Shown: one piece after another, positions 1 through 64,000 of the stretch
Numbering within the stretch: position 1 is the stretch's first letter
Layout of the letters: each line of letters starts with the position of its first letter
From: Candidatus Latescibacterota bacterium
GTDB lineage: Bacteria; Latescibacterota; UBA2968; UBA8231
DNA: 64,000 bases
Assembly: GCA_965208105.1 (NCBI GenBank)
Contig: OZ242318.1
Coordinates: 64,001-128,000, forward strand
Direction: 5' to 3'
The notes under the pieces: generated by a model
What the model saw: only the letters and a program-made list of their open reading frames with translations
Database searches by the model: none
What the model was told of the DNA's origin: nothing
Program-made: the position numbers and the translations under genes

Positions 1-2452
1 TGGACCGTAGATCCTCGGGTTCGAGGCTGTGAATATTGGTCTTGCCGACACCACGCGCCATCATCGATGCCTCTCCGGAACTGGCGGTTAAAAAATTCAG
101 TGCAGATTCGAGGTATTCCTCAATCGTGTAATCCGCCGAAAAATGCATATGGTTGCGGTCGTCAATTCTACCTCCCATGGCCAGGGCGACAGAGACGCTC
201 ATGATCACTGACTGGCAGCCCAATGCAATGGCCTTTGCGGCATCTGTTCCAGACCGTATCCCCCCGAAGTAAACGACGTTGATCTGTTCCTCCATCCTGG
301 AGGTTCGCAGGGACGCGATGGCGTCGCGCAGAACCGTTAAATCGAATCCGCACGCCAGTTCCGGCCATGGTTCTTCCAGCCTTGCGCTTCCATCCAATAC
401 AATTATGTCACAGCCCTGATCGATTGCCCATGGAACTGCGTCACTAATTGTGTCGGAACTTGCCGAGACGCCGAGCAATTGGTCCTCCCTCCCCCGAACC
501 AGATCGGCCCGGGAAGTGGTCTTTCCCAGGGTATATACGAGGCCTGCGGCATCTGCGCTGGGGTCCCCTCCCGACGGGGGGATCAACTGCATCCAGGGAG
601 TCTCGGGGCCAAGTTGCCTTGCACCGAGATAGGCACAGCCGCTTCTTTTTATGGCCTCGGACAGGCCCAGTTTGATTTCTTCCGGTGCGCGGTCAAAACC
701 GGTGATGAGAAAAGGAGATTCAAGCTCAAGCGAATGCCCAATCCTGGTCTGCATCTTGCATGCCTCGCGGTACGGGTCGATGACCAGGCGCGACAAATTG
801 GCGGGCAGCAGATGGATGTCGTCAAGCATGGCGCCTCTGTCCCCGGGAAATGGATTCTGGCGATTGGCCAGGCGCTTGTTCAGCATGGGGACGTGTTTGT
901 GCGCTTGCTCGGGACGCGTTCGGGCCATTATGAATATATCTTCGCGGGTGTTGACGGAATATTCGTGCGTGCCGTTTTCCGCGTCGCACCGTAGACAACG
1001 CGCCGCTTCCTCTCTGGCCTGTGGGAGAGTGTAGGTCGTCTCGATTTCGGGAAATGCGAGGGGATCTTTGCCCAGCCCGTGAAATGGTTGGTCAACCCTG
1101 TTGAAAATTTCCCACTCAGGGTCTTGGGCTACCGGAACCCGCCTGGTGCGATAGGGCGTGCTGTACGGCATCGGGTCGCTTCTACCTTCGAGAAAGGCCT
1201 TGATGTAGTAGGCAGCCCGGTGCCCAAGGTACATGGCATTGACGATGGTCGAAGGTCCGAAGGCTCCGTCTCCGGTGGCAAATACCATGCGGTCCTCAGT
1301 GGCCGTCGTCTCATGGTCTGCACGGATGCGCTCGTTCGCCATGAAGCCCATCTCTTCGAGTTCTTCGTTTTCGGCCTTCTGACCGACCGCGGCAATTACG
1401 AGGCCGCATTCGATGTCGTGTTCGGAACCTTCCACCATAAGGGGTTTTCTTCTACCATCCGCTTCGGGATCACCCATCACCGTCTTCAAGCAGCGGATGG
1501 CGGGAGGAGCATCGCGCCCTGGTATCCCCACCGGTTGAGTATTGTAGATGAACTCCACCTTTTCTTTGACGGCTCCTTCAAGTTCGTCCCGGCGGGCGGG
1601 AATTTCCATGGGGCTGCGACGATAGAGCACTTTTACGTGCCGGCATCCTGGAAGGCGCAGGGCAGCGCGGCAGGCGTCCATTGCCACATCCCCGCCTCCC
1701 ACGACGACCACGGTTTCTGGCATCCGTGGGCGTTCGCCGCTGTTTATTCGCCGCAGAAAGGATACCCCGTCGACTACGCGAGGGCCGCATTCTCCAGGTA
1801 TGCCCATTTTCTTCCCCCACCATGCACCGATTGCAAGGAGGACCGCGTCGTGTTTCGATTTCAATTCTTCCAGGGAGATGTTCTTCCCGAGAGCGTGGTT
1901 GAAATGGACCACTATGCCGGGACAGTGATTCAGTATCCGGTTGATGTCCTCGTCGATGATTCTGGGCGGAAGGCGAAATGCGGGTATCCCCCAGACCATC
2001 ATTCCGCCCAGTCGGTCGGACATTTCGTAGACGTGGACCTCGTACCCGGCCTCGGCAATATCCTGCGCGGCCGTCAGCCCGGCGGGACCGCCTCCGACAA
2101 TGGCCACTGTCTCGTCACGGGTGACTTTAACCGGGGGTAGGTGGAAGTCGGGTCCCAGCTTGTCCATGACGAAGCGCTTCAGGTTGCGAATGGCTATCGG
2201 TCCGTCGCTGTCGGCTCTGCGGCACGCAGGTTCGCAGGGAGCGTCGCAGACGCGTCCGCAAATCGAGCTGAAGGGGTTGGTGGCCGAGATGGCTTCCAGG
2301 GCTCCGACAAAGTTTTCTTCCCAGATATAACCTATGTAGGAAGGTGCATCGGTCCCTATGGGGCACGCTACCTGGCAAGGCGCGGGCACAAAGTGCAGAT
2401 CGGAAGTATCGTCCAGTAGTTCGATGGGAACGAAAGAGGCGGGGGCGCTCAT
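1..2452 (-). CDS. GltD/SudA-like FAD/NAD(P)H Fe-S oxidoreductase fused to a degenerate FMN-binding glutamate-synthase (GlxD/GltB2-like) domain; 3' end runs off the window
   Basis: Translated by hand from the ATG at 2452: ...APCQVACPIG...SICGRVCDAPCEPACRR...VAIVGGGPAGL... Later in the same frame: EEAARCLRC, LDDIHLLPANLSRLVIDPYREAC, GGIRSGTDAAKAIALG, ARGVGKTNIHSLEPEDLR. The ORF track lists no closed ORF in this frame, consistent with no in-frame stop inside the window. Confidence 0.88.
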   Translation of the reverse strand, partial: MSAPASFVPIELLDDTSDLHFVPAPCQVACPIGTDAPSYIGYIWEENFVGALEAISATNPFSSICGRVCDAPCEPACRRADSDGPIAIRNLKRFVMDKLGPDFHLPPVKVTRDETVAIVGGGPAGLTAAQDIAEAGYEVHVYEMSDRLGGMMVWGIPAFRLPPRIIDEDINRILNHCPGIVVHFNHALGKNISLEELKSKHDAVLLAIGAWWGKKMGIPGECGPRVVDGVSFLRRINSGERPRMPETVVVVGGGDVAMDACRAALRLPGCRHVKVLYRRSPMEIPARRDELEGAVKEKVEFIYNTQPVGIPGRDAPPAIRCLKTVMGDPEADGRRKPLMVEGSEHDIECGLVIAAVGQKAENEELEEMGFMANERIRADHETTATEDRMVFATGDGAFGPSTIVNAMYLGHRAAYYIKAFLEGRSDPMPYSTPYRTRRVPVAQDPEWEIFNRVDQPFHGLGKDPLAFPEIETTYTLPQAREEAARCLRCDAENGTHEYSVNTREDIFIMARTRPEQAHKHVPMLNKRLANRQNPFPGDRGAMLDDIHLLPANLSRLVIDPYREACKMQTRIGHSLELESPFLITGFDRAPEEIKLGLSEAIKRSGCAYLGARQLGPETPWMQLIPPSGGDPSADAAGLVYTLGKTTSRADLVRGREDQLLGVSASSDTISDAVPWAIDQGCDIIVLDGSARLEEPWPELACGFDLTVLRDAIASLRTSRMEEQINVVYFGGIRSGTDAAKAIALGCQSVIMSVSVALAMGGRIDDRNHMHFSADYTIEEYLESALNFLTASSGEASMMARGVGKTNIHSLEPEDLRS

Positions 2453-2459
2453 CTTCTCG

Positions 2460-4439
2460 CTAATCGAATCTCTCCGCCAGGAGCGGTTTCAACTCTGTGA
2501 AGGGCTTTGGCTTCCTTCCAAACTCCGGGGAGAAGGGCAGCCGGGTAATTCTTGCTGCCTCTGGGGTAAGAGCCACCAGGTCACGCCGAGAAAGCTGGCG
2601 AAAATCGGCATATCCCAGGCCCTTGACAACGGCGGCCAACTGCCAACGGATATTTTCGAGAAAGTGGTGGATATTTCGGGCTTCGACCGGGATATTGTAG
2701 CGCTTCTCGTGTTGCGGGTCCTGGGTGGCAATTCCCACGACACATGTTCCCACGTGGCACTGCATGCAGGAGATGCATCCTCCGGCGATTATGGCCGCTG
2801 TGCCAACAGCGGTGGCATCCGCCCCCAGGGCCAGTGCCTTGGCAACATCGATGCCGTCCTTGATGCCGCCCATCAGGACGATGGGGAGCTCTCCTGGCCG
2901 CTCGATTTCGGCGAGAGCGTCGACTGCTTCCTGGATTGCGGCCAGGGTCGGTATGCCTACGTATTCCAGGACTTCCGAGCTGGAGGCGCCTGTGGATCCC
3001 TGAGATCCGTCGAGTTCTACGAAGTCGGCGCCTGACTTGAGTGCGATCTTGATGTCGTCGCGCACGCGGCCAGCTCCCATTTTGAGGCTTACGGGCAATT
3101 TATATTCGGTTGCTTCCCTGAATTCTTCAATTTTGATGACCAGGTCGTCCGCCCCGAGGATGTCCGGATGGCGGGACGGGGACCTCAAGTCGATCCCCTG
3201 TGGAATGCCTCGAATGGCCGCCAGCTCCCTGGTGACTTTTTTGGCCATGAGCTGACCCCCGAAACCTGGTTTGGCTCCCTGAGATATATAGATTTCCAGG
3301 GCATTGGCGCGCCGCATGTCATGGATATTCCAGCCCAGCCTTCCGCCGAGGCATTGCATGATGATCTGGTCGGCCTCCCGCCTTTGCTCGTCGGTCAACC
3401 CCCCTTCTCCCGTATTTTCCGACGTGCCGGAAAGCCGCGAGGCAATGGCAAGTGCCACCTTCGTGGACTTGCTCAAGGCGCCATAGCTCATGGGAGCAAT
3501 CATCACCGGCATACTCAGCGACAGGGGGATCGCTCCGTTTTTTTCTCCAATTTGGGTCCTGAGATTGACTTTTTCCAGCAAGTCCGGATCGGTGCCGGCC
3601 TGCGACAGGTCGTGCTTGAAGGCGAGGTCCGAAAAGTGCGGCAGTGGCCGCGATGCGCCGTAGCCGCGGATGCGGTATCGACCGATCTGGGACTTGATGA
3701 ATATGTCCTCTTGAACCTTTCTGTTCCAGTAGTCGGCTTTGCCTGAGAAGGTAAAAAACGGGATCGGCCGGGTGCGTGCTTCGTCTCCCTTATAGCGCAG
3801 TTTTTTGCCGGCGTTCACCACCTTCTTGAATGAACCGGTGAAGGGAATTTCCTGCTCATCCAGAAATTCCAACACCGCGCTGCACTCATCCTCGGAGATT
3901 TCCGCCTGTTTTGCATCCGTGCCCAGCGACTGTATCTTGCCGCCGACGTAAATTTCCCCCCCGTGCATGTCCTCGCCGATCTTCTCTCCCGAATCCCCGA
4001 GGATGATCACTCGTCCTCCATACATCATGTATCCCGCCATGAAGCTGGCGTGGCCGGCGCAGCAGAGAGTTCCGGCCTTCATCACCTGCCCGGCGCGCGA
4101 TCCGAGGTTCCCCTTGACCACAACTGTTGCGCCGCGGATCGCAACGGCGGCAATGGTGCTGGCATTGCCATTGACGACCACCGTGCCTTCATAGACGTTG
4201 TCGGCCAGTCCCCATCCCGCGTTGCCGTCTACTTCAAATCTGGCCTTGTCTGATAGACCTGCACAGAAATAACCGGCGGATCCGCGGATGCGCACGGTAA
4301 TTGGAGAGAGAAGGCCGACGCCGATGTGGTGGCGCGCATCGGGGTTGAGCACTTCGACGTCGTGGCCCAGCGATCCAAGCTCTCTGATCTTCTGGTTGGC
4401 GTCTCTGACGCTCAACTCGGTCAGATCTACTTGGACCAT
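2460..4439 (-). CDS. GXGXG-domain (GlxC/GltB3) + FMN-binding glutamate synthase (GlxD/GltB2) fusion, N-methylglutamate synthase MgsB+MgsC-like
   Basis: N-terminal GXGXG beta-helix repeats (GNAGWG, GNLGSRAG, GDSGEKIG). C-terminal APMSYGALS, SQGAKPGFGG, GGIKDGIDVAKALALGA and the Cys cluster CISCMQCHVGTC. Confidence 0.9.
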   Translation of the reverse strand: MVQVDLTELSVRDANQKIRELGSLGHDVEVLNPDARHHIGVGLLSPITVRIRGSAGYFCAGLSDKARFEVDGNAGWGLADNVYEGTVVVNGNASTIAAVAIRGATVVVKGNLGSRAGQVMKAGTLCCAGHASFMAGYMMYGGRVIILGDSGEKIGEDMHGGEIYVGGKIQSLGTDAKQAEISEDECSAVLEFLDEQEIPFTGSFKKVVNAGKKLRYKGDEARTRPIPFFTFSGKADYWNRKVQEDIFIKSQIGRYRIRGYGASRPLPHFSDLAFKHDLSQAGTDPDLLEKVNLRTQIGEKNGAIPLSLSMPVMIAPMSYGALSKSTKVALAIASRLSGTSENTGEGGLTDEQRREADQIIMQCLGGRLGWNIHDMRRANALEIYISQGAKPGFGGQLMAKKVTRELAAIRGIPQGIDLRSPSRHPDILGADDLVIKIEEFREATEYKLPVSLKMGAGRVRDDIKIALKSGADFVELDGSQGSTGASSSEVLEYVGIPTLAAIQEAVDALAEIERPGELPIVLMGGIKDGIDVAKALALGADATAVGTAAIIAGGCISCMQCHVGTCVVGIATQDPQHEKRYNIPVEARNIHHFLENIRWQLAAVVKGLGYADFRQLSRRDLVALTPEAARITRLPFSPEFGRKPKPFTELKPLLAERFD

Positions 4440-5332
4440 GTAAAGTAGGTTCCTGGCAGAGGCTCGGTGGTGGCGATCATCTCGCCGGGGAACAATCTGT
4501 TCAGCGAGACCTCTTCTGATGCGATAGCGACTAGTTGGTCCGTCTCGTACATCACCATGGGTTTTGCAGCAAGCTGGTCCTTTGCAAAGCCCAGTTCGTT
4601 CCCGGTTGAAACCAGAAAGGAAAAGGTCCCATCGAGTTCCTCGATGCTGGCGGACAGCACTTCCTCCAGAGGCATCCCGCGCGACAATTGCTCGGCCAAA
4701 AATACCGCGATGAGTTCGCTGTCATTGTCGGTTCTGAATTCGAACTCCTTGCTTTCGAGGGCTCGCCTCATTTTCCAGTAGTTGGTTATTTGCCCATTGT
4801 GGACAATGGCGATATCGGCAAAGCCGGTAGCCCAGAAGGGATGGGCGGCCTCGGGTTCGACGTTGGATTCGGTGGCGAGCCTCACGTGGCCGATGCCGTG
4901 GGTTCCGAAGGAGTTCTGCACGTGATAGCGCCTGTCCACCGCGTGTGCGTCGCCGACGTCCTTGATTATTTCCAGACTCGAGCCAATGGAGATGACTTTT
5001 GCAGCTCGTTCCAGAGCATAGGAAAACCTTTGCATGTCGCCAGTAAAGATCACGGTTACCCGGTAATTACTCTCGATGATCTCGTCCCGGACAATGGTGG
5101 CATTGTATTCCCTGAGGACGTTCTGTATGCAGCCGACGGCATCGAGATCCCCATGGCCTTCTCCAATGAGAAACCGGAGTATGTACTGATCGGTTGCAGG
5201 CTCGCCATAGATTGCAAACCCGGTGGAATCCCTGCCCCGATGCTGGCACCCGTAGAGCATCTGAACAAGGGCTTTGCCGACGTCGTGCTTGTCTCTAGCG
5301 CCTTTGTAGAAGATTCCGGCAATGCCACACAT
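4427..5332 (-). CDS. Class II glutamine amidotransferase, GlxB/MgsA/GltB1-like
   Basis: N-terminal nucleophile MCGIAG, QHRG, GHVRLATES, HNGQITN, TDNDSE. Overlaps the downstream GlxCD gene. Confidence 0.9.
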   Translation of the reverse strand: MCGIAGIFYKGARDKHDVGKALVQMLYGCQHRGRDSTGFAIYGEPATDQYILRFLIGEGHGDLDAVGCIQNVLREYNATIVRDEIIESNYRVTVIFTGDMQRFSYALERAAKVISIGSSLEIIKDVGDAHAVDRRYHVQNSFGTHGIGHVRLATESNVEPEAAHPFWATGFADIAIVHNGQITNYWKMRRALESKEFEFRTDNDSELIAVFLAEQLSRGMPLEEVLSASIEELDGTFSFLVSTGNELGFAKDQLAAKPMVMYETDQLVAIASEEVSLNRLFPGEMIATTEPLPGTYFTWSK

Positions 5333-5434
5333 GGTGAATTTTTCAGGAAAGAAAGGTGAGCAATGATTGGGATTTGGAGACTGCCGTTGGTGGCTGAACA
5401 GGCTCCCATCCCCTAACTGTGCATTTCCGGATTT

Positions 5435-5462
5435 AATGTAACAAGGAAACCTCTTCGGGCAA
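5435..5462 (-). promoter_or_regulatory. Possible sigma70 promoter for the glxB operon
   Basis: Minus strand TTGCCC-16 bp-TACATT with an extended -10 TG, about 100 bp upstream of the ATG. Confidence 0.35.
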
Positions 5463-5612
5463 GTCCGTTGCGGTCGAATGGCCCGCTGTCCCTTTCGGAA
5501 GACAGCCGGGTTGTGCGGGGCCGACCGGTCCGCGCCCGGCGCTTTTCAAGGGGGGTTGGACCGGGATATCCCTGGAGGCGGGGAGAGAATTTTCAGGAGA
5601 TCGGTTGGCCTT

Positions 5613-5774
5613 GTGTCCCGTCGCAGAAATATGTTGCCATTATTCCGCCGATCCATCCCGGCTCACGGCGTTGCCTTCATTCGCCGTACACCACTGGTAC
5701 GACTCGCTCAGGCGCCTTGTGAGCCGGGCGCCTCGGCGGCCCAATTTCGTCAACCTATCTCTGCGACGGGACAC
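5613..5774 (+). mobile_element. 162-bp palindromic MITE-like repeat, copy 1
   Basis: Terminal inverted repeats GTGTCCCGTCGCAGA/TCTGCGACGGGACAC. Near-identical copies at 50109-50270 and 62546-62707. Confidence 0.85.
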
Positions 5775-5796
5775 TGATTATGGTTGGATGTCGGAT

Positions 5797-5872
5797 TGGT
5801 GGAGCAGAGCGGGATCGAACCGCCGACCTCAGGCTTGCAAAGCCCGCGCTCTCCCATCTGAGCTACTGCCCC
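5797..5872 (-). tRNA. tRNA-Ala(TGC)
   Basis: GGGGCAGTAGCTCAGATGGGAGAGCG...TTTGCAA...GGTTCGATCCCGCTCTGCTCCACCA; 76 nt, encoded CCA. Confidence 0.97.
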
Positions 5873-6153: not shown

Positions 6154-6552
6154 TCAGGCGATTTCCAGATCCTCTTCGAGGGAGTCTTCCACTTCCGTTG
6201 CCGCCTGGCTCTTCTCCAGAAGCTGGAGGCTTCGGACCTGTATTTCAACCAGGGAATGATGACGGTCCTCCTCATCTCTCCAGCTGTGGCTGCGAAGACG
6301 GCCAGCTATGAATACCGCGGTTCCTTTGCGGATGCGTTCGGCGTAGTACTCGGCCATTTTTTGCCAGAGCACTATATTGAAAAAGGAACTCTCTTCCTGC
6401 CACTCGCCATTGCGTTGGCGGTAGGAGCGGTTGACAGCTAGTCGGGCGCTTAGCCTGGCAACCCCATTTTCGGTAAGCCGAAATTCGGGATCCTGGGCCA
6501 GCCGGCCACTGAGAGCGATCTGGTTGATGGTTGGCATGCGCAGTTTGGACAT
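6154..6552 (-). CDS. ssb: Single-stranded DNA-binding protein paralog with a short tail
   Basis: OB-fold motifs INQIALSGRLAQDPEFR, FFNIVLW, GRLRSHSW. Start moved to MSKLRMP at 6552. Acidic tail lacks the DDDxPF motif. Confidence 0.88.
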   Translation of the reverse strand: MSKLRMPTINQIALSGRLAQDPEFRLTENGVARLSARLAVNRSYRQRNGEWQEESSFFNIVLWQKMAEYYAERIRKGTAVFIAGRLRSHSWRDEEDRHHSLVEIQVRSLQLLEKSQAATEVEDSLEEDLEIA

Positions 6553-6749
6553 GATGGGCCTCCAAGGAAAATGGTGACGAACGAGAGTCCGGCCTTCCCC
6601 GTTCCATCCCGGGGCAGCAACCTGGTGGGCAGGAGGCAAGCAGGATCTGTGCCAATTTTTCTGGGAAGCCCCAACACCTTGGAGATAAACGAGTTGAAGG
6701 GACCTCCTCAGGTTGCGGGGAAGGAGAGTGTGAAGGAGAAAAGGCGCTT

Positions 6750-8342
6750 TTGAGTAGCCCGCGACACGCTCTGTCCAACCAGAGAGGTAATGCATCCCTG
6801 GCGCAATTCTTCACCCCCTGCGAATTGGCAAAGTTCATTTGTCAGGCCGCACGGGTCTTCGCGGGAGGGCTTGGAAATCAACCCAGGATCATCGACCCTT
6901 CCGCGGGGAAGGGTGTTTTTCTGGATGCCGCACTGGAACTGGGGATGGTGTCAGCAGACCACGCCTATGGAATCGAAATCGATCCGGAGCTGGAAGCACG
7001 GCGCTCGGAGGGGGCCCGCGGCACCATGTTCTATACAGGTGATGGATTGCTGCAGGAATTTCCCGGTGTGGATTCAGCGAGTTTTGACCTGGTGGTGGGC
7101 AATCCACCGTTCGGACGCCTGGAGGATATTCTTCCCGGGGAATACCTGTGCCAGGTCGGTGACAAGGTTGAAAAATGGAACCGTTTCTCGATTTGGCGTC
7201 TAGGTGGCAATGGCGAACGGCCTGGGTGCAATAAACGGATTTTGCACAAAACGGCCATCGATCTGCTCTTCGTCGAGCGCGCCATTCAACTCGCCAGGCC
7301 AGGAGGGGTGATTGGGTTCATCCTTCCCGAGGGCTTTTTCGCCAATACGAGGCTGCAAAAGGTTCGCGACTGGGTGCTGGAACGCGCGGCGGTGGTCGCT
7401 GTGATGGATTTGCCCGATACGGTATTCCGGCAGTGTTGCGCAACTGCAAAAACGGAGATCCTGTTTTTGCGCAAGCGGGTCAACAGTCGGAACGGGAGCG
7501 ATGAAGTCTTGCTGGTTCCCCGTTCCCGGCCGGCTGGATCCCCGGGAGATTCTTTGAAGGACAAGCTTGAAAAGGTTCTCGCGGTCCTGCGCACCCGAAA
7601 CCCGAAACAGGCGGATGGAATCTTCTTTCTTTCCGAAACCAGACTTCGCGGTGCCCGCTGGGATGTGGAGTTCTGGTCGGAAAAGACCAAGCCGGCGCGG
7701 TTGCCCGGTGGGTTCGCCTTGGACCCCCTGGGTGATTATATCGAACACCTTACCTACGGGCCGATCGTAACGGGGCGGCGGCCCCGGTACGAGGAGGTGG
7801 GGATCCGGGTCATCGGCCAGGGAGATTTTGCCGAAACGGGTCTGCATTTTGAGCGCAGCTTGTACGTCCAGGAGGGCAGTGAGTTCGATCTGATGCGCAG
7901 CCGCGTGCGCTATGGAGACCTGTTGCTGCCACGGTCCGGCGCCGGCACTTTGGGCAAGAATCGCCTTGCGGTCTATCTTGGAAGTGAGCCAGCGAATATC
8001 GGGTGCTTTGTGGATCTCGTCCGCCTGGCCGGGATCAATCCCTTCTTCGTATGGTTCTATTTCAAGTCAAGGCCGGGATGGGCGCAAATCCGCTCCATCA
8101 TCAATGGAGTTGGAACGCCGAACATCAACTTTTCGGAGATTCGCGCCCTGATGGTTCCAGTACTTCCGCTTCAGGAGCAGGAAAATCTGGAAAGGCGTTA
8201 TCTCGAGGAGGTCTGGCCGCTGCACTGCCGCCGAGCCGAGGGAGGGGAGGTGCGCGCTGAAGGTGAATGCCGCTTCAGGCGCATAACCGAGGACCTGGAA
8301 CAGTTTCTGGCAGGAGAGAAAGGAACGACGGAAAAATGTTGA
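6750..8342 (+). CDS. N6-adenine DNA methyltransferase (HsdM-like) fused to one HsdS-like target recognition domain
   Basis: QFFTP, motif I DPSAGKGVFL, motif IV GNPPF, FILPEGF. C-terminal TRD-like GDLLLPRSGAGTLG...GVGTPNINFSEIRAL. Start codon uncertain. Confidence 0.8.
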   Translation: MSSPRHALSNQRGNASLAQFFTPCELAKFICQAARVFAGGLGNQPRIIDPSAGKGVFLDAALELGMVSADHAYGIEIDPELEARRSEGARGTMFYTGDGLLQEFPGVDSASFDLVVGNPPFGRLEDILPGEYLCQVGDKVEKWNRFSIWRLGGNGERPGCNKRILHKTAIDLLFVERAIQLARPGGVIGFILPEGFFANTRLQKVRDWVLERAAVVAVMDLPDTVFRQCCATAKTEILFLRKRVNSRNGSDEVLLVPRSRPAGSPGDSLKDKLEKVLAVLRTRNPKQADGIFFLSETRLRGARWDVEFWSEKTKPARLPGGFALDPLGDYIEHLTYGPIVTGRRPRYEEVGIRVIGQGDFAETGLHFERSLYVQEGSEFDLMRSRVRYGDLLLPRSGAGTLGKNRLAVYLGSEPANIGCFVDLVRLAGINPFFVWFYFKSRPGWAQIRSIINGVGTPNINFSEIRALMVPVLPLQEQENLERRYLEEVWPLHCRRAEGGEVRAEGECRFRRITEDLEQFLAGEKGTTEKC

Positions 8343-8388: not shown

Positions 8389-10461
8389 ATGATTCCTGAA
8401 AAATTCACCAATCGCCTGATCGAGGAGACCAGTCCCTACCTGCGCCAGCACGCTCACAATCCGGTTGACTGGTATCCATGGGGAACGGAGGCAATTGAAC
8501 GTGCGCGGCGGGAAGATCGGCCCATACTGCTGTCAATCGGATATTCGGCCTGCCACTGGTGTCACGTCATGGAGCACGAATCATTCGAGGACGAGAAGAT
8601 TGCCGGGATCATGAACGAGCACTTCGTCAATATCAAGGTGGACAGGGAAGAAAGGCCCGACCTTGACGAGATCTACATGATGGCCGTGCAGAGTTTGACG
8701 GGCGGCGGCGGCTGGCCCATGACGGTATTCCTGGCTCCGGATTTACGGCCCTTCTACGGGGGCACTTACTTCCCGCCGGCCGACCGCCACGGGCAACCCG
8801 GATTTCCCAGGGTCCTGCTGGCCCTGGCGGGGCAATTCCGCGGCAGCCGAGACAGGATCGAGGAGGTAGCTGCCAACCTGACCGAGACCTTGAAGCGCCA
8901 GGCCGACCTGTTGGCCCCTCAGGGGCAGATCGGAGAAGAAATCCTGGAAGGTGCATTCGGCCATTTTCACCGCAGCTTCGACCTGACCCACGGCGGGATG
9001 GGGTCGGCGCCGAAGTTTCCAAATAGCATGGCCCTTTCCCTGCTGTTGCGCAGCTATCGCAGGAGCGGCAACAGAAACGCCCTGGAAATGGTCGAGTTGA
9101 CCTTGAAGAAGATGGCCAACGGGGGAATTTACGATCAGTTGGGAGGGGGATTCCATCGCTACTCGGTCGACCAGCGGTGGCTGGTGCCCCACTTTGAAAA
9201 GATGCTCTACGACAATGCGTTGCTCGTCTGGGTCTACTTGGAGGCCTTTCAGTTGACGGGTGACGGATTTTATCGGCGTGTGGTCGAGGAAGTACTTGGC
9301 TATGTCCTGCGTGAAATGTGCAGTGAAGGGGGCGGCTTTTTCTCCACCCAGGATGCAGACAGCGAAGGAGAGGAAGGCAAGTATTTCGTCTGGGAGCCCG
9401 AGGAGGTAGAGAAGATTCTCGGAGAGGAGGAAGCCCCGCTCTTCATGCGCTATTTCGATGTGACTGCGGAGGGCAACTTTGAACATGGCAAAAGCATCCT
9501 CCACGTGGACAATGAGATCACTGTACTTGCCCGCTTTCTCGATGTGGAAGAGGAAGAATTGAGCAGAGCCGTGGAGGAGGGGAAGAGTAAGCTCCTTGGC
9601 GCCCGCCGGCAGCGCGTGCCTCCGGCGCGGGATGACAAAATTTTGTTGGCCTGGAACGGCATGATGATCAGCGCCTTCGCCCGTGCATATCAGGTTCTGG
9701 GAGTGGATTCCTATCTCCAGGCGGGAGAGTCGGCGGCGAGGTTCGTTTTGGAAAATATGGTGGAAAATGGCTCGCTCCTGCATGTCTACAAGGACGGCCG
9801 GGCGCGCTTGCCGGCCTACCAGGACGATTATGCCTGTATTATCAATGGCCTCATCGATCTCTACGAAGCCAGTTTCGATTTGAGCTGGTTGCGGGCGGCA
9901 AAGGACTGGAACCAGGTGATGGTGGAAAGGTTCTGGGATCGGGAAAAGGGAGGATTTTTCTACACCGAAGAAGGGGCGGGCGATCTGATCGTGCGTACCA
10001 AAAACCCCCTGGACAATGCTACTCCCTCGGGTAATTCAATGGGAGTGCTGGCTTTGCTGCGCATCTCAGCTTTGACCGGCGATTCGAGGCTGAGGGAAAT
10101 GGCGGAGAGGACCTTGCTTTTGTATGGGAACTTGATGAGGCGTTCGCCTTCCTCCTGCGCCCAGATGCTGTGTGCTCTCGATTTCTACCAGGAGCCCGTG
10201 CACGAGGTCGCGGTAGTCGGTCCTCGCAGGGACTGGGCCCCTTTCCTGCACGCGTTGCATGCCCGCTTCCTTCCCAACAAGGTCCTGGTGGGAGGCGACC
10301 CGTCTGCGTGTCCGATGGATTTGGTGGACCATCTTCCTCTATTGAAAGGGAAGGTGGAAGCCGAGGCGGGGCAGGCAAGGGTCTACGTGTGCCGAAACTC
10401 CGTGTGCGACCAGCCTGTGACTACGGTCGAAGGTCTACTTGGCTTGCTGATGGTTGAATGA
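8389..10461 (+). CDS. Thioredoxin domain-containing protein, YyaL/SPATA20 (DUF255) family
   Basis: [42 protein letters not shown]. Confidence 0.95.
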
Positions 10462-39247: not shown

Positions 39248-39263
39248 TGCAATTATTGTGCCA
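39248..39263 (-). promoter_or_regulatory. Sigma54 (-24/-12) promoter of groESL
   Basis: Minus strand TGGCAC-AATAA-TTGCA, an exact match to TGGCAC-N5-TTGCW, 57 bp upstream of groES. Confidence 0.8.
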
Positions 39264-63248: not shown

Positions 63249-64000
63249 TTGGCTGGTAGTTTCTTCCATCTATTGTTGGCGCGGCAGGCCTTCTCCCTCA
63301 TAGATCCCCAATCGCGGCAACGGTCAGCCGAAACCCTCAGGTGGAGGGCATTTCTGGCCGGATCCCTGGCTCCGGACCTGGGGTTCTTTCCCGGCGGACC
63401 GCGCCGTCTCTCCGAGCGCATCCACCACGAGTACACCGGCGATTTCCTGCGGGCCCTCAGGGAAGAGGCGGAAGACGAGATCGATGCCGCCTTTGCCGCC
63501 GGGTGGGCTCTTCACCTGTACACCGATTGTGCCGTCCATCCCTGGGTGAACTCCCGAGTCGAAGCCCTTTTTAGCGAAGGGGACGGGCCTGCCGTCCCCA
63601 ATCGGGACCTCTGGCACATGCGCCTGGAGTGGGGACTGGACTGCCGCCTGCTCGAGCAGGATCAAAACCGCTTTCTCTGGGAAGCTGTCCTGAATTTCCC
63701 GGGCAGCAGCTCCACTCCGGGTCCCTTGACCCGGGCCGCGGAAAAATTTTACGGGGAAAACGCCGCCAGGGATGATATCTCCCGCGGAGAGGAAGCCCTG
63801 AAGAAATGGACGCGGCTGCTTCCGCGGATCTTTCTCTGGTGCGGAAATACCAGACCCAAATTCAAACTGGCCTTTCCCGCCCTGGCTCCCATAGTGAAAC
63901 TGACCACCGGGACGGTCTCGGGAGATTGGCTGGCCACCGTAAATGGTTGGCAGAATGCGGCGGCCGTCGCCAGGCCCTGGCGCCAGAACGATGCAGATTT
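63249..64000 (+). CDS. Zinc-dependent phospholipase C family protein, partial (runs off the right edge)
   Basis: Translated by hand from TTG 63249: MAGSFFHLLLA...AFLAGSLAPDLGFF...IHH...GWALHLYTDCAVHPWVN...WHMRLEWGLD. Confidence 0.72.
   Translation, partial: MAGSFFHLLLARQAFSLIDPQSRQRSAETLRWRAFLAGSLAPDLGFFPGGPRRLSERIHHEYTGDFLRALREEAEDEIDAAFAAGWALHLYTDCAVHPWVNSRVEALFSEGDGPAVPNRDLWHMRLEWGLDCRLLEQDQNRFLWEAVLNFPGSSSTPGPLTRAAEKFYGENAARDDISRGEEALKKWTRLLPRIFLWCGNTRPKFKLAFPALAPIVKLTTGTVSGDWLATVNGWQNAAAVARPWRQNDAD

Follow-up and report, generated by a model that had tools for sequence, protein, structure and literature searches.

The 64,000-nt stretch of a Candidatus Latescibacterota genome analyzed here (the window; the whole genome is G000 below) carries at its left end, in positions 1-5332, three closely packed genes on the minus strand, named A, CD and Rb, the last for a reductase joined to a barrel (b). 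The operon is a distinct, widespread and uncharacterised variant of the GlxBCD/MgsABC branch, with a reductase and a pseudo-enzyme barrel of its own. Gene A (4427..5332) encodes a 301-aa class-II, N-terminal nucleophile (Ntn) glutamine-amidotransferase-like subunit of the GlxB/MgsA kind. It begins MCGIAG, is placed in this class by Pfam GATase_6/7 and shows 36% identity end to end with the annotated GlxB of three classical operons, including the cysteine after the initiator methionine. The last 13 bases of A overlap the start of CD (2460..4439, 659 aa), in which a GXGXG beta-helix (residues 32-175, 3915..4346; Pfam PF01493, 57.8 bits) is fused to a catalytic flavin mononucleotide (FMN) barrel (residues 280-610, 2610..3602; PF01645 Glu_synthase, 315 bits, E 8.5e-94, and alignment with GltB and classical GlxD), a GlxC::GlxD or MgsB::MgsC-like arrangement. 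Residues 2-637 of CD are 37-40% identical to the adjacent glxC and glxD of classical operons, and its barrel has the motifs APMSYGALS, NTGEGG, QGAKPGFGGQ and GGIKDGID as well as a four-cysteine Fe-S motif identified by alignment (C555, C558, C561 and C566, C-x2-C-x2-C-x4-C; 2742..2777).

The third gene, Rb, starts 7 bases after the CD stop codon at 2452 and runs to the left edge of the window, its remainder lying at G000 63948-64000. A first reading of the window, made from the sequence alone and called the sequence-only reading below, had described an open reading frame (ORF) of more than 817 codons from 2452 to the edge, preceded by GlxB-like and GlxC::GlxD genes. Those two neighbours are the A and CD described above. 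The 817 codons inside the window are open throughout, and in the whole-genome sequence the frame closes 17 codons beyond the edge, giving a protein of 834 aa without an in-frame stop. Its GltD-like module (residues 24-495, 968..2383) is followed by b, a stripped FMN-type barrel (residues 500-817 in the window, 2..955, continuing to 834 beyond it). The motifs quoted at that time are all found in the translation: GGGPAG (120-125), EAARCLRC (482-489), GGIRSGTDAAKAIALG, ARGVGKTNIHSLEPEDL, TGFDRAP and GGRIDDRNHMH.

An assembly error between the two domains of Rb is ruled out by recurrence of the fusion, both on an independent metagenome contig and in related genomes. Relatives are encoded in 533 stretches (one genome per species); the best 80 of these, all from metagenome-assembled genomes and with genes called by a simple ORF caller, were fetched as loci, and 71 of the 80 show the fusion. 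The independent contig (27.9 kb, X7) covers all 5400 bases of the region with 82 substitutions and no insertion or deletion. The operon was found again at ~98.5% identity in contigs from sponge and marine metagenomes of several studies, the single indel listed among them (X13, at 5339) being non-coding. This recurrence without coding indels fits an intact, selected gene set, and the source organism may be sponge-associated. Short contigs (48-285 bases, ~91-98% identical) on Rb and CD occur in one marine metatranscriptome library; they come from a relative and could be DNA carry-over, and are not proof of transcription, and the stretches that they leave uncovered carry no information.

The GltD-like reductase and the two barrels

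The first half of Rb is, as the sequence-only reading had it, a complete GltD/SudA-like module. Pfam finds Fer4_20 at residues 24-98 (83 bits) and Pyr_redox_2 at 115-408 (104 bits), and the Fe-S cysteines are present (C26/C30 and C65/C69/C73/C77), so that an N-terminal Fe-S region is followed by an adrenodoxin-reductase-like FAD/NAD(P)H domain, the order that makes a protein GltD-like sensu Vanoni. The flavin adenine dinucleotide (FAD) site reads GGGPAG and the second Rossmann motif GGGDVAMD...YRR, and a cysteine pair, C486/C489 in EAARCLRC, comes after the nucleotide domains. The module scores under the cut-off of every NCBIfam model, with 183 bits for TIGR01317 (cut-off 447.7) and 249 for TIGR01318 (cut-off 483); the top scores are 388 bits for PRK12771 (cut-off 516) and 387 for PRK12814 (cut-off 916). 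The nearest solved chains are 9bov_A (residues 24-491) and NfnA 9n5u_A, 4ylf_B being another Nfn-type relative, and Azospirillum brasilense GltD aligns over residues 26-426 with 218 bits. Behind the second Rossmann glycine motif lies VLYRRSPMEIPARRDE, which we take to resemble the NADPH-type site of GltD and its relatives, a likeness supported by the 9bov_A alignment alone; a preference of the module for NADPH is a guess from these residues.

The CD family is highly conserved, with a mean column identity of 81% in an alignment of 21 sequences from several phyla. The four-cysteine site is invariant in all 21 and aligns with the cluster site of GltB and of the ferredoxin-fused short glutamate synthases; the spacing C-x2-C-x2-C-x4-C is also retained in one of the latter (P0274) and in P0221. 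Classical GlxD proteins are divided in this respect. Four of alphaproteobacterial type (Paracoccus, Rhizobium, Ponticoccus and L096; loci L088, L090, L092 and L096) have no cysteine at the site, and two betaproteobacterial ones (L089, L091) keep all four around an insertion of ~25-34 residues. Judging from these alignments, the difference may separate redox-neutral from externally reduced N-methylglutamate synthases. A review of GltD-like proteins describes the Fe-S cluster of GltS as passing electrons from GltD to FMN (PMC8097209), and, given that role, the CD cluster together with the GltD-like module points to external reduction of the FMN.

The relationship of the barrels was examined in a quick maximum-likelihood tree of 36 rows with few outgroups. 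It included 24 of the 46 CD barrels of suitable length (every second one), together with 5 classical GlxD and 6 unnamed representatives, and the GltB of G000 served as outgroup. The CD barrels all group in a single clade (Shimodaira-Hasegawa-like approximate likelihood-ratio test, SH-aLRT, 100), the stem of which measures 1.29 changes per column, the classical GlxD form another (SH-aLRT 99), and both lie inside the short glutamate synthases. By this tree CD stands beside classical GlxD as a sister family and not within it. A CD match with 71% identity in a related genome (G018:C1:2683423-2685375) has one in-frame TGA in a 1230-aa open frame; this codon may mark the boundary of a gene, result from a sequencing error or show that the copy is broken.

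The second barrel, b, is barely visible to Pfam, where the Glu_synthase match at Rb residues 708-764 scores 20.5 bits against a cut-off of 20.4. Profile-profile comparison (hhalign) of the b and CD families nevertheless covers CD residues 230-639 (probability 99.6%, E 1.2e-23, 327 columns), which makes b a homologue of the FMN barrel over its full length. The catalytic equipment looked for in the alignment, namely APMS(F/Y)GALS, NTGEGG, the QGAKPGxGGQ loop, GxxGGTGA and the Fe-S cysteines, is in each case absent or replaced: APMSYGALS, GSQGSTGA and all four cysteines are gone, and ~100 residues around the NTGEGG, QGAKPGFGGQ and RSPSRHPD loops are lacking. The only catalytic-type motif left is the phosphate-loop-like GGxRSGxD (GGIRSGTD in b), and this lies inside the predicted interface with CD described below. 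The claim that the second barrel is degenerate, having lost APMSYGALS and the Fe-S cysteines, thus holds up in the profile alignment, where not all FMN and Fe-S ligands are retained, and a non-catalytic b is supported by these losses. Two motifs are strongly conserved instead, LLPANLSRLVIDPYRE ahead of the barrel and GK...NLEPEDLR...GIPL at its end.

An AlphaFold2 model of Rb residues 500-834 from a 25-row alignment (predicted local distance difference test score, pLDDT, 89.8; predicted template-modelling score, pTM, 0.86) is a triosephosphate-isomerase (TIM) barrel. Its top fold matches are FMN-dependent alpha-hydroxy-acid oxidases and type-2 isopentenyl diphosphate (IPP) isomerase (VIA Z 21-22, ~245 aligned residues, root-mean-square deviation ~3 A). 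The A. brasilense glutamate synthase chain 6s6s_A follows at VIA Z 19.4 over 270 aligned residues, the range in that chain (residues 487-1189) spanning both its FMN and its central domain. Homology of b to the GltB central domain was considered and dropped, given that PF04898 (Glu_syn_central) has no match in A, CD or Rb at E up to 0.01 and that Foldseek and VIA put generic FMN TIM barrels first; the resemblance remains as a functional analogy alone. The GltD review describes that domain as a shortened barrel that may have arisen by duplication of the FMN barrel and that lines the ammonia tunnel (PMC8097209), and by this analogy a tunnel-forming role for b is plausible.

Predicted pairing of the stripped barrel with CD

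Docking of b on CD is supported by structure prediction. CD (659 aa, alignment A2 with 21 sequences) and b (335 aa, alignment A1) were modelled together with ESMFold2 in three runs, which gave ipSAE values of 0.81, 0.84 and 0.83 (0.83 overall), ~300 contacts, a contact agreement between runs of at least 89% and a partner pLDDT of at least 85; all three controls gave 0.00. The ipSAE mark used is passed by 116 of 157 solved complexes and by 2 of 215 mismatched pairs, rates that are approximate here, where own alignments were used. The predicted interface looks pseudo-symmetric. Both chains contribute a pre-barrel arm (b 3-63; CD 237-285), the GGI(R/K)xG loop (b 232-237; CD 527-530), a late helix and the C-terminal tail, and on the CD side the K390 loop and residues 548-557, which adjoin the cluster cysteines, take part as well. 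Positions of b in this interface are more conserved than the others (majority-residue fraction 0.68 vs. 0.47 for positions from 40 onwards; one-sided Mann-Whitney p 2e-8, with neighbouring positions and related rows not independent).

Comparison of D-type barrels with and without a b partner shows two motifs that appear to have changed hands. We compared four barrels with a partner (the CD described here and those of L094, L095 and L099), seven without (four classical GlxD, P0221, P0274 and L100) and four b modules. The N-terminal motif (L/I)xxLSRxxIDxYRExC is found in all four b modules and in six of the seven barrels lacking b, and in none of the four that have it; the C-terminal motif NLE(P/R/K)EDL has the same distribution (4/4, 6/7 and 0/4), the partnered barrels having LSRxDL in its place. 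P0274 is the sole exception, with ASI replacing LSR (YRESC is kept) and KFSTDDL at the C-motif. All b-associated D barrels compared retain the four-cysteine site.

Natural fusions also join the two barrels. P0126 (1486 aa) is a single chain of GXGXG, Glu_synthase, Fer4_20, Pyr_redox_2 and b, and P0139 (1031 aa) consists of GXGXG, Glu_synthase and b with no reductase. Locus L099 (3092-9842) has a helix-turn-helix (HTH)-cupin regulator, A, a C::D::b triple fusion and a glutamine synthetase (GS) with an N-terminal domain, again with no GltD-like gene. Such CD+R+b (P0126) and CD+b (P0139, L099) chains are Rosetta-stone fusions for the pairing of b with CD. At L095 (1-8738), two glycyl-radical enzymes are followed by A, C, D, a stand-alone b and a URO-D-family (URO-D/MtbA-like) protein, and at L094 (969-9487) an MttB-family methyltransferase by A, CD, a divergent Rb and a GS-like gene. 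Other representatives of an apparently stand-alone b were set aside: at least the relatives of P0163 are part of the divergent Rb (L094), and a clear separate b gene is present in L095 alone.

The sequence-only reading had seen in the degenerate barrel a non-catalytic docking module tethering the reductase to the active subunit. Its lack of catalytic motifs, the predicted docking on CD and the CD+b fusions speak for the first part of this idea. The second part is too narrow, as b occurs as a separate gene (L095) or in fusion with CD where there is no GltD-like module (L099, P0139), and is therefore not merely a reductase tether. Two motifs missing from its catalytic partner are retained in b, which therefore looks like one half of a former homo-oligomer. 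From these sequence comparisons we infer that ancestral GlxD was probably homo-oligomeric, that it was duplicated, the chemistry staying with one copy and the partner motifs with the other, and that the reductase was then fused to the non-catalytic copy.

Distribution, gene neighbourhoods and putative methylamine genes

Of 8000 candidates scored in a word-indexed protein search with b alone, 1081 were matches. Among the 120 matches listed, most are 830-860 aa long; their names, where given, are 'FAD-dependent oxidoreductase' or 'glutamate synthase beta subunit-like'. An exhaustive search of 50%-identity representatives gave 388 matches with E no higher than 0.001, of which 50 reached 1e-30 or lower. 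The best 80 loci are labelled as Alpha- and Gammaproteobacteria, Planctomycetota, Lentisphaeria, Acidimicrobiia, Thermodesulfobacteriota, Opitutales and others. Among the 51 with at least 3.1 kb upstream of Rb, both A and CD precede it in 41, CD alone in 4 and neither in 6; at least three of the six are explained by a shadow ORF on the opposite strand (L046 and L080, with A called in each) or by a fused CD-Rb gene (L057).

A few kinds of gene recur in these neighbourhoods. A GS-like gene of ~437 aa with Gln-synt_C only is present in 20 of the 80 loci and is the next gene after Rb in 13 of 62; an Amt transporter is found in 14 of the 80 loci, an HTH-cupin regulator in 9, and SoxB-, SoxA- and SoxD-like genes in 6, 5 and 4, respectively, so that any of GS, Amt and Sox is present in 29. 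For comparison, five plasmid-borne classical glxB-glxC-glxD-glnT operons have an XRE regulator, Amt, type III GS and sox-like genes nearby.

The genome G000 itself has its own canonical GltB, in a 1555-aa frame next to a GltD-like gene. At C1 1,118,092-1,124,688 (L087 10092-16688), a GS-like gene of the type III, GmaS-like kind (444 aa) comes directly after a soxB-soxD-soxA-soxG-like set, with no mgsABC adjoining; the GS-like product is 42-45% identical to annotated glnT and 47-49% to the GS-like genes after Rb elsewhere. A second soxBDA-like set lies at ~1.760-1.765 Mb, and a comparison of SoxB for orthology to Mgd was ambiguous, the first set being nearest to the L013 copy (51%) and the second to a Rhizobium copy (55%). 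No split classical GlxC/GlxD pair was found in the genome. If the organism runs the N-methylglutamate pathway, the operon in the window is the only candidate for the synthase step. A third Glu_synthase match (~2,547,200-2,548,100; L004 1534-2415) was considered as a classical mgs gene and rejected, being a 5'-truncated ORF without GlxB or GlxC alongside. This ORF (293 aa, profile positions 94-367, GltB-like cysteine motif) lies among arginine/alanine-rich ORFs and looks like a gene remnant.

A survey of 61 genomes, G000 and 60 relatives, links Rb to the GS-like gene. Rb is present in 16 genomes, namely G000 and 15 of the 36 others in its family; the 24 genomes from three other families all lack it. 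An orthologue of the GS-like gene (at least 72% identity) occurs in 23 of the 61, including all 16 with Rb. Conversely, none of the 38 genomes lacking the orthologue has Rb, 12 of the 38 having just a paralogue of 45-51%. Seven genomes have the orthologue and no Rb; the five examined (all but G012 and G029) carry split GlxC- and GlxD-like genes, 40-46% identical to CD, at 5-9 kb from the GS-like gene. Five of the 15 other Rb-bearing relatives were examined in the same way, and all five have a fused CD (71-91% identity) and a canonical GltB-like frame, and no split GlxC/GlxD. Genus g18 holds both states, with Rb and a 72% orthologue in G018 and neither in G027 and G033. Ten more Rb-bearing genomes were reached through their loci, one of them being the relative G014, and nine of the ten hold a type-III-GS-like gene of 41-74% identity. 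The distribution is a pattern of two alternative partners for the same ligase-plus-dehydrogenase set. An additional paralogue with a 538-aa frame was seen in G008.

Upstream of the operon lies a non-coding region (5333..5477), as read in the sequence. A scan for sigma-54-like promoters (TGGCAC-N5-TTGCW, up to two mismatches) gave 29 matches in the window against 28.5 expected, none of them within 5333-5800. The sole match without mismatch is a perfect -24/-12 consensus (TGGCAC-N5-TTGCA) at 39248-39263 on the minus strand. To the right of the operon are genes for a single-stranded DNA-binding protein (SSB; 6154-6795, minus strand), an N6_Mtase/Eco57I-type DNA methylase (6750-8342, plus strand) and a DUF255 thioredoxin-domain protein (8389-10461, plus strand).

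Proposed function and relation to known systems

By analogy with NADPH-glutamate synthase, we propose that A, CD and Rb form one NAD(P)H-coupled complex of N-methylglutamate-synthase type, belonging to the short GlxBCD/MgsABC branch and containing a pseudo-barrel partner, a reading to which we give a probability of about 0.55. All modules of the proposed complex are present and intact in sequence. A GmaS-like ligase encoded elsewhere in the genome would convert methylamine, glutamate and ATP to gamma-glutamylmethylamide. Subunit A would hydrolyse a gamma-glutamyl amide, most likely this one, and the methylamine released would reach the FMN barrel of CD and add to 2-oxoglutarate, the resulting imine being reduced by FMNH2. 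Rb would re-reduce the FMN with electrons from NAD(P)H, which would pass through FAD and two [4Fe-4S] clusters and then the four-cysteine cluster of CD. Glutamate and N-methylglutamate would result, the latter then being oxidised by a SoxBDAG-like dehydrogenase to glutamate and a C1 unit, and methylamine nitrogen would thus enter glutamate without free ammonia. In this scheme b would have no chemistry of its own. It would form a pseudo-symmetric heterodimer with the catalytic barrel, descended from a homo-oligomeric GlxD, and in the form found here it would also bring the reductase to the cluster side of CD. The choice of methylamine as substrate rests on gene context and distribution, and we consider it somewhat favoured.

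Several observations weigh against this proposal. The flanks of the operon in this genome are housekeeping genes (UbiA, ribosome recycling factor RRF, elongation factor EF-Ts, S9, L13, IspDF, SSB and the DNA methylase), with no gmaS, amt or sox gene out to 12 kb, so the gmaS/mgd/sox neighbours that the sequence-only reading expected are not at this locus; they are found ~1.05 Mb away in the same genome and, as counted above, near 29 of the 80 related operons. Among those 80, a GS-like neighbour is present in just 20. The relatives surveyed are kin, and the co-occurrence counts are not independent events. In the 36-row tree the CD barrel does not fall within the GlxD clade of gmaS/mgd-linked operons, and with CD in a clade outside classical GlxD its orthology to characterised MgsC is not established. 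Classical N-methylglutamate synthase is described as redox-neutral (methylamine + glutamate), and the textbook reaction has no need of a reductase. Lastly, ipSAE is a model confidence, and both barrels resemble solved oligomeric FMN barrels, so that the b-CD score could reflect remembered likeness; moreover, the invariant EPED motif of b is outside the confident predicted interface. Within the stretch that contains it (G-K...E-P-E-D...R, Rb residues 803-816, window ~5-46, minus strand), contacts are listed for G803 and R816, not for K804 or E811-D814.

The genes might also encode a second ordinary NAD(P)H-dependent glutamate synthase (GOGAT; glutamine + 2-oxoglutarate to 2 glutamate) built from re-fused parts, with b in place of the GltB central domain. 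Every module of NADPH-GOGAT except the central domain is present, i.e. a Cys-1 amidotransferase, an FMN barrel with the QGAKPGxGGQ loop, Fe-S cysteines, GXGXG and a GltD-like unit, a stripped barrel packed against the catalytic face would be of the central-domain kind, and no methylamine gene adjoins the operon in the window. We nonetheless regard this as unlikely, because a canonical GltB of the 1500-aa class is already encoded both here, with an adjacent GltD, and in all five Rb-bearing relatives examined, and because Rb is confined to genomes with the gmaS-like orthologue (16/16) and never occurs together with classical GlxC/GlxD in the 10 relatives examined. The neighbours of the operon elsewhere (GS-III-like, Amt, Sox/Mgd-like and MttB genes) argue in the same direction, as do the missing Pfam match to Glu_syn_central and a fold search that does not favour the central domain.

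Two further alternatives concern the substrate and the direction of electron flow. A reductive gamma-glutamyl-amine (or free amine):2-oxoglutarate aminotransferase acting on an amine other than methylamine, such as ethylamine, another alkylamine or a choline/betaine breakdown product, would form a different N-alkylglutamate. It would agree with GS-like neighbours that are just 37-49% identical to one another and annotated glnT, with varied contexts (an MttB-family gene in L094, glycyl-radical enzymes and URO-D/MtbA-like protein in L095, a tripartite ATP-independent periplasmic (TRAP) transporter in L099, ATP-binding cassette (ABC) transporters) and with a CD clade apart from characterised-type GlxD. 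The position of the genome's own GS-like gene directly behind the SoxBDAG-like set is, however, the gmaS-mgdABCD arrangement, the same orthologue adjoins classical GlxC/D in relatives, and Amt-type transporters and Sox-like oxidases recur, which makes this option improbable to us. Electron flow in the opposite sense is less probable still: the GltD-like module would then be an outlet or redox sensor, serving glutamate or N-methylglutamate oxidation with reduction of NAD(P)+, or regulation, instead of supply. GltD-like modules are bidirectional in Nfn-type enzymes, among them the closest solved relatives (9bov_A, NfnA 9n5u_A and 4ylf_B), and some b-containing systems have no such module. Against this stand the four-cysteine site, which is kept by all b-associated D barrels and lost in alphaproteobacterial classical GlxD, as fits electron input to FMN, and the Cys-1 amidotransferase, which points to transfer of amide nitrogen and hence to the synthetic direction.

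A more specific form of the N-methylglutamate-synthase proposal, which we put forward tentatively, is that the complex might be an NAD(P)H-dependent gamma-glutamylmethylamide:2-oxoglutarate methylaminotransferase with an obligate catalytic/pseudo-enzyme heterodimer that arose by complementary loss in GlxD, the electron donor of N-methylglutamate synthase (NMGS) being lineage-specific. If so, it would constitute with GmaS a GS/GOGAT-like cycle placing methylamine nitrogen in glutamate with no free ammonia. The catalytic copy would have lost the N- and C-terminal partner motifs, and the other copy would have lost the chemistry and gained the reductase; alphaproteobacterial enzymes without Fe-S cysteines would be redox-neutral and cluster-bearing ones externally reduced.

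Methylamine is a major marine nitrogen and C1 compound, and to our knowledge no study has resolved the enzyme that catalyses the middle step of the N-methylglutamate pathway. gmaS is stated to occur in ~23% of surface-ocean microbial genomes in the relevant part of one study (PMC7948447). In passages on this pathway, Mindt et al. 2018 draw the analogy of GMAS/NMGS to GS/GOGAT and state that the redox cofactor of NMGS is unidentified (PMC6237917). A widespread form with a built-in reductase is a directly testable system for that question. Rb also provides a marker hidden at present under the general annotations noted above, merely 'FAD-dependent oxidoreductase' or 'glutamate synthase beta subunit-like', and b a clean natural case of a pseudo-enzyme paralogue kept as a structural partner.

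The sequence-only reading did not recognise the architecture as characterised, and our search of the open full-text literature, which excludes subscription journals, likewise yielded no account of an N-methylglutamate-synthase-like enzyme with a fused GltD or a duplicated barrel. The closest known system is MgsABC/GlxBCD (EC 2.1.1.21) of Methylobacterium extorquens and Methyloversatilis universalis, putatively also of SAR11, where Sun et al. 2011, in the section concerned, assigned glxBCD-glnT-soxBDAG to the N-methylglutamate pathway (PMC3160333). It has three modules in the same order as A-CD with 36-40% identity, its neighbours (type III GS/GmaS, Amt, XRE-cupin regulator and Sox/Mgd-like genes) recur around the Rb operons of other genomes, and the two systems have a complementary distribution among relatives. 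Unlike MgsABC, the present operon has GlxC fused to GlxD and a third gene that brings an FAD/Fe-S reductase and the stripped barrel, and, unlike the classical operons, it does not adjoin gmaS or mgd in this genome. Classical GlxD keeps LSRxxxDxYRExC and NLEPEDL, both lost from the CD barrel, whereas CD keeps the four Fe-S cysteines that alphaproteobacterial GlxD does not.

The GltD-like proteins covered by the 2021 review as consulted include GltS, dihydropyrimidine dehydrogenase (DPD), Nfn/SudA and AegA/YgfT, and its account of GltS places in GltB, too, a degraded barrel beside the catalytic one, namely the central domain (PMC8097209). The NADPH-dependent GltB/GltD of A. brasilense (PDB 6S6S/6S6X) shares with the operon the Cys-1 amidotransferase, the FMN barrel with its Fe-S site, GXGXG and a GltD-like subunit. 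Here, in contrast, the modules are spread over three genes in another order and the degraded barrel is on the reductase, not on the synthase; b is a full-length homologue of the FMN barrel, unlike the PF04898 central domain, and the reductase differs from GltD in its RCxxC pair after the nucleotide domains and in scoring below all NCBIfam cut-offs. DPD (PDB 1GT8/1H7X) resembles Rb in having a GltD-like module N-terminal to an FMN-type TIM barrel (Z 14.6 to 1gt8_A 530-939), but its barrel is catalytic, FMN-binding and of the dihydroorotate dehydrogenase (DHODH) type, with a ferredoxin domain after it, whereas that of Rb is of glutamate-synthase type and lacks the catalytic loops. The short 'archaeal-type' glutamate synthases (P0274) have, like this operon, a short FMN barrel with C-x2-C-x2-C-x4-C and a separate amidotransferase and GXGXG. 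Their electrons, however, come through a fused 2x[4Fe-4S] ferredoxin domain and not a GltD-like flavoprotein, they have no stripped barrel, and the N- and C-motifs are largely retained in their own barrel.

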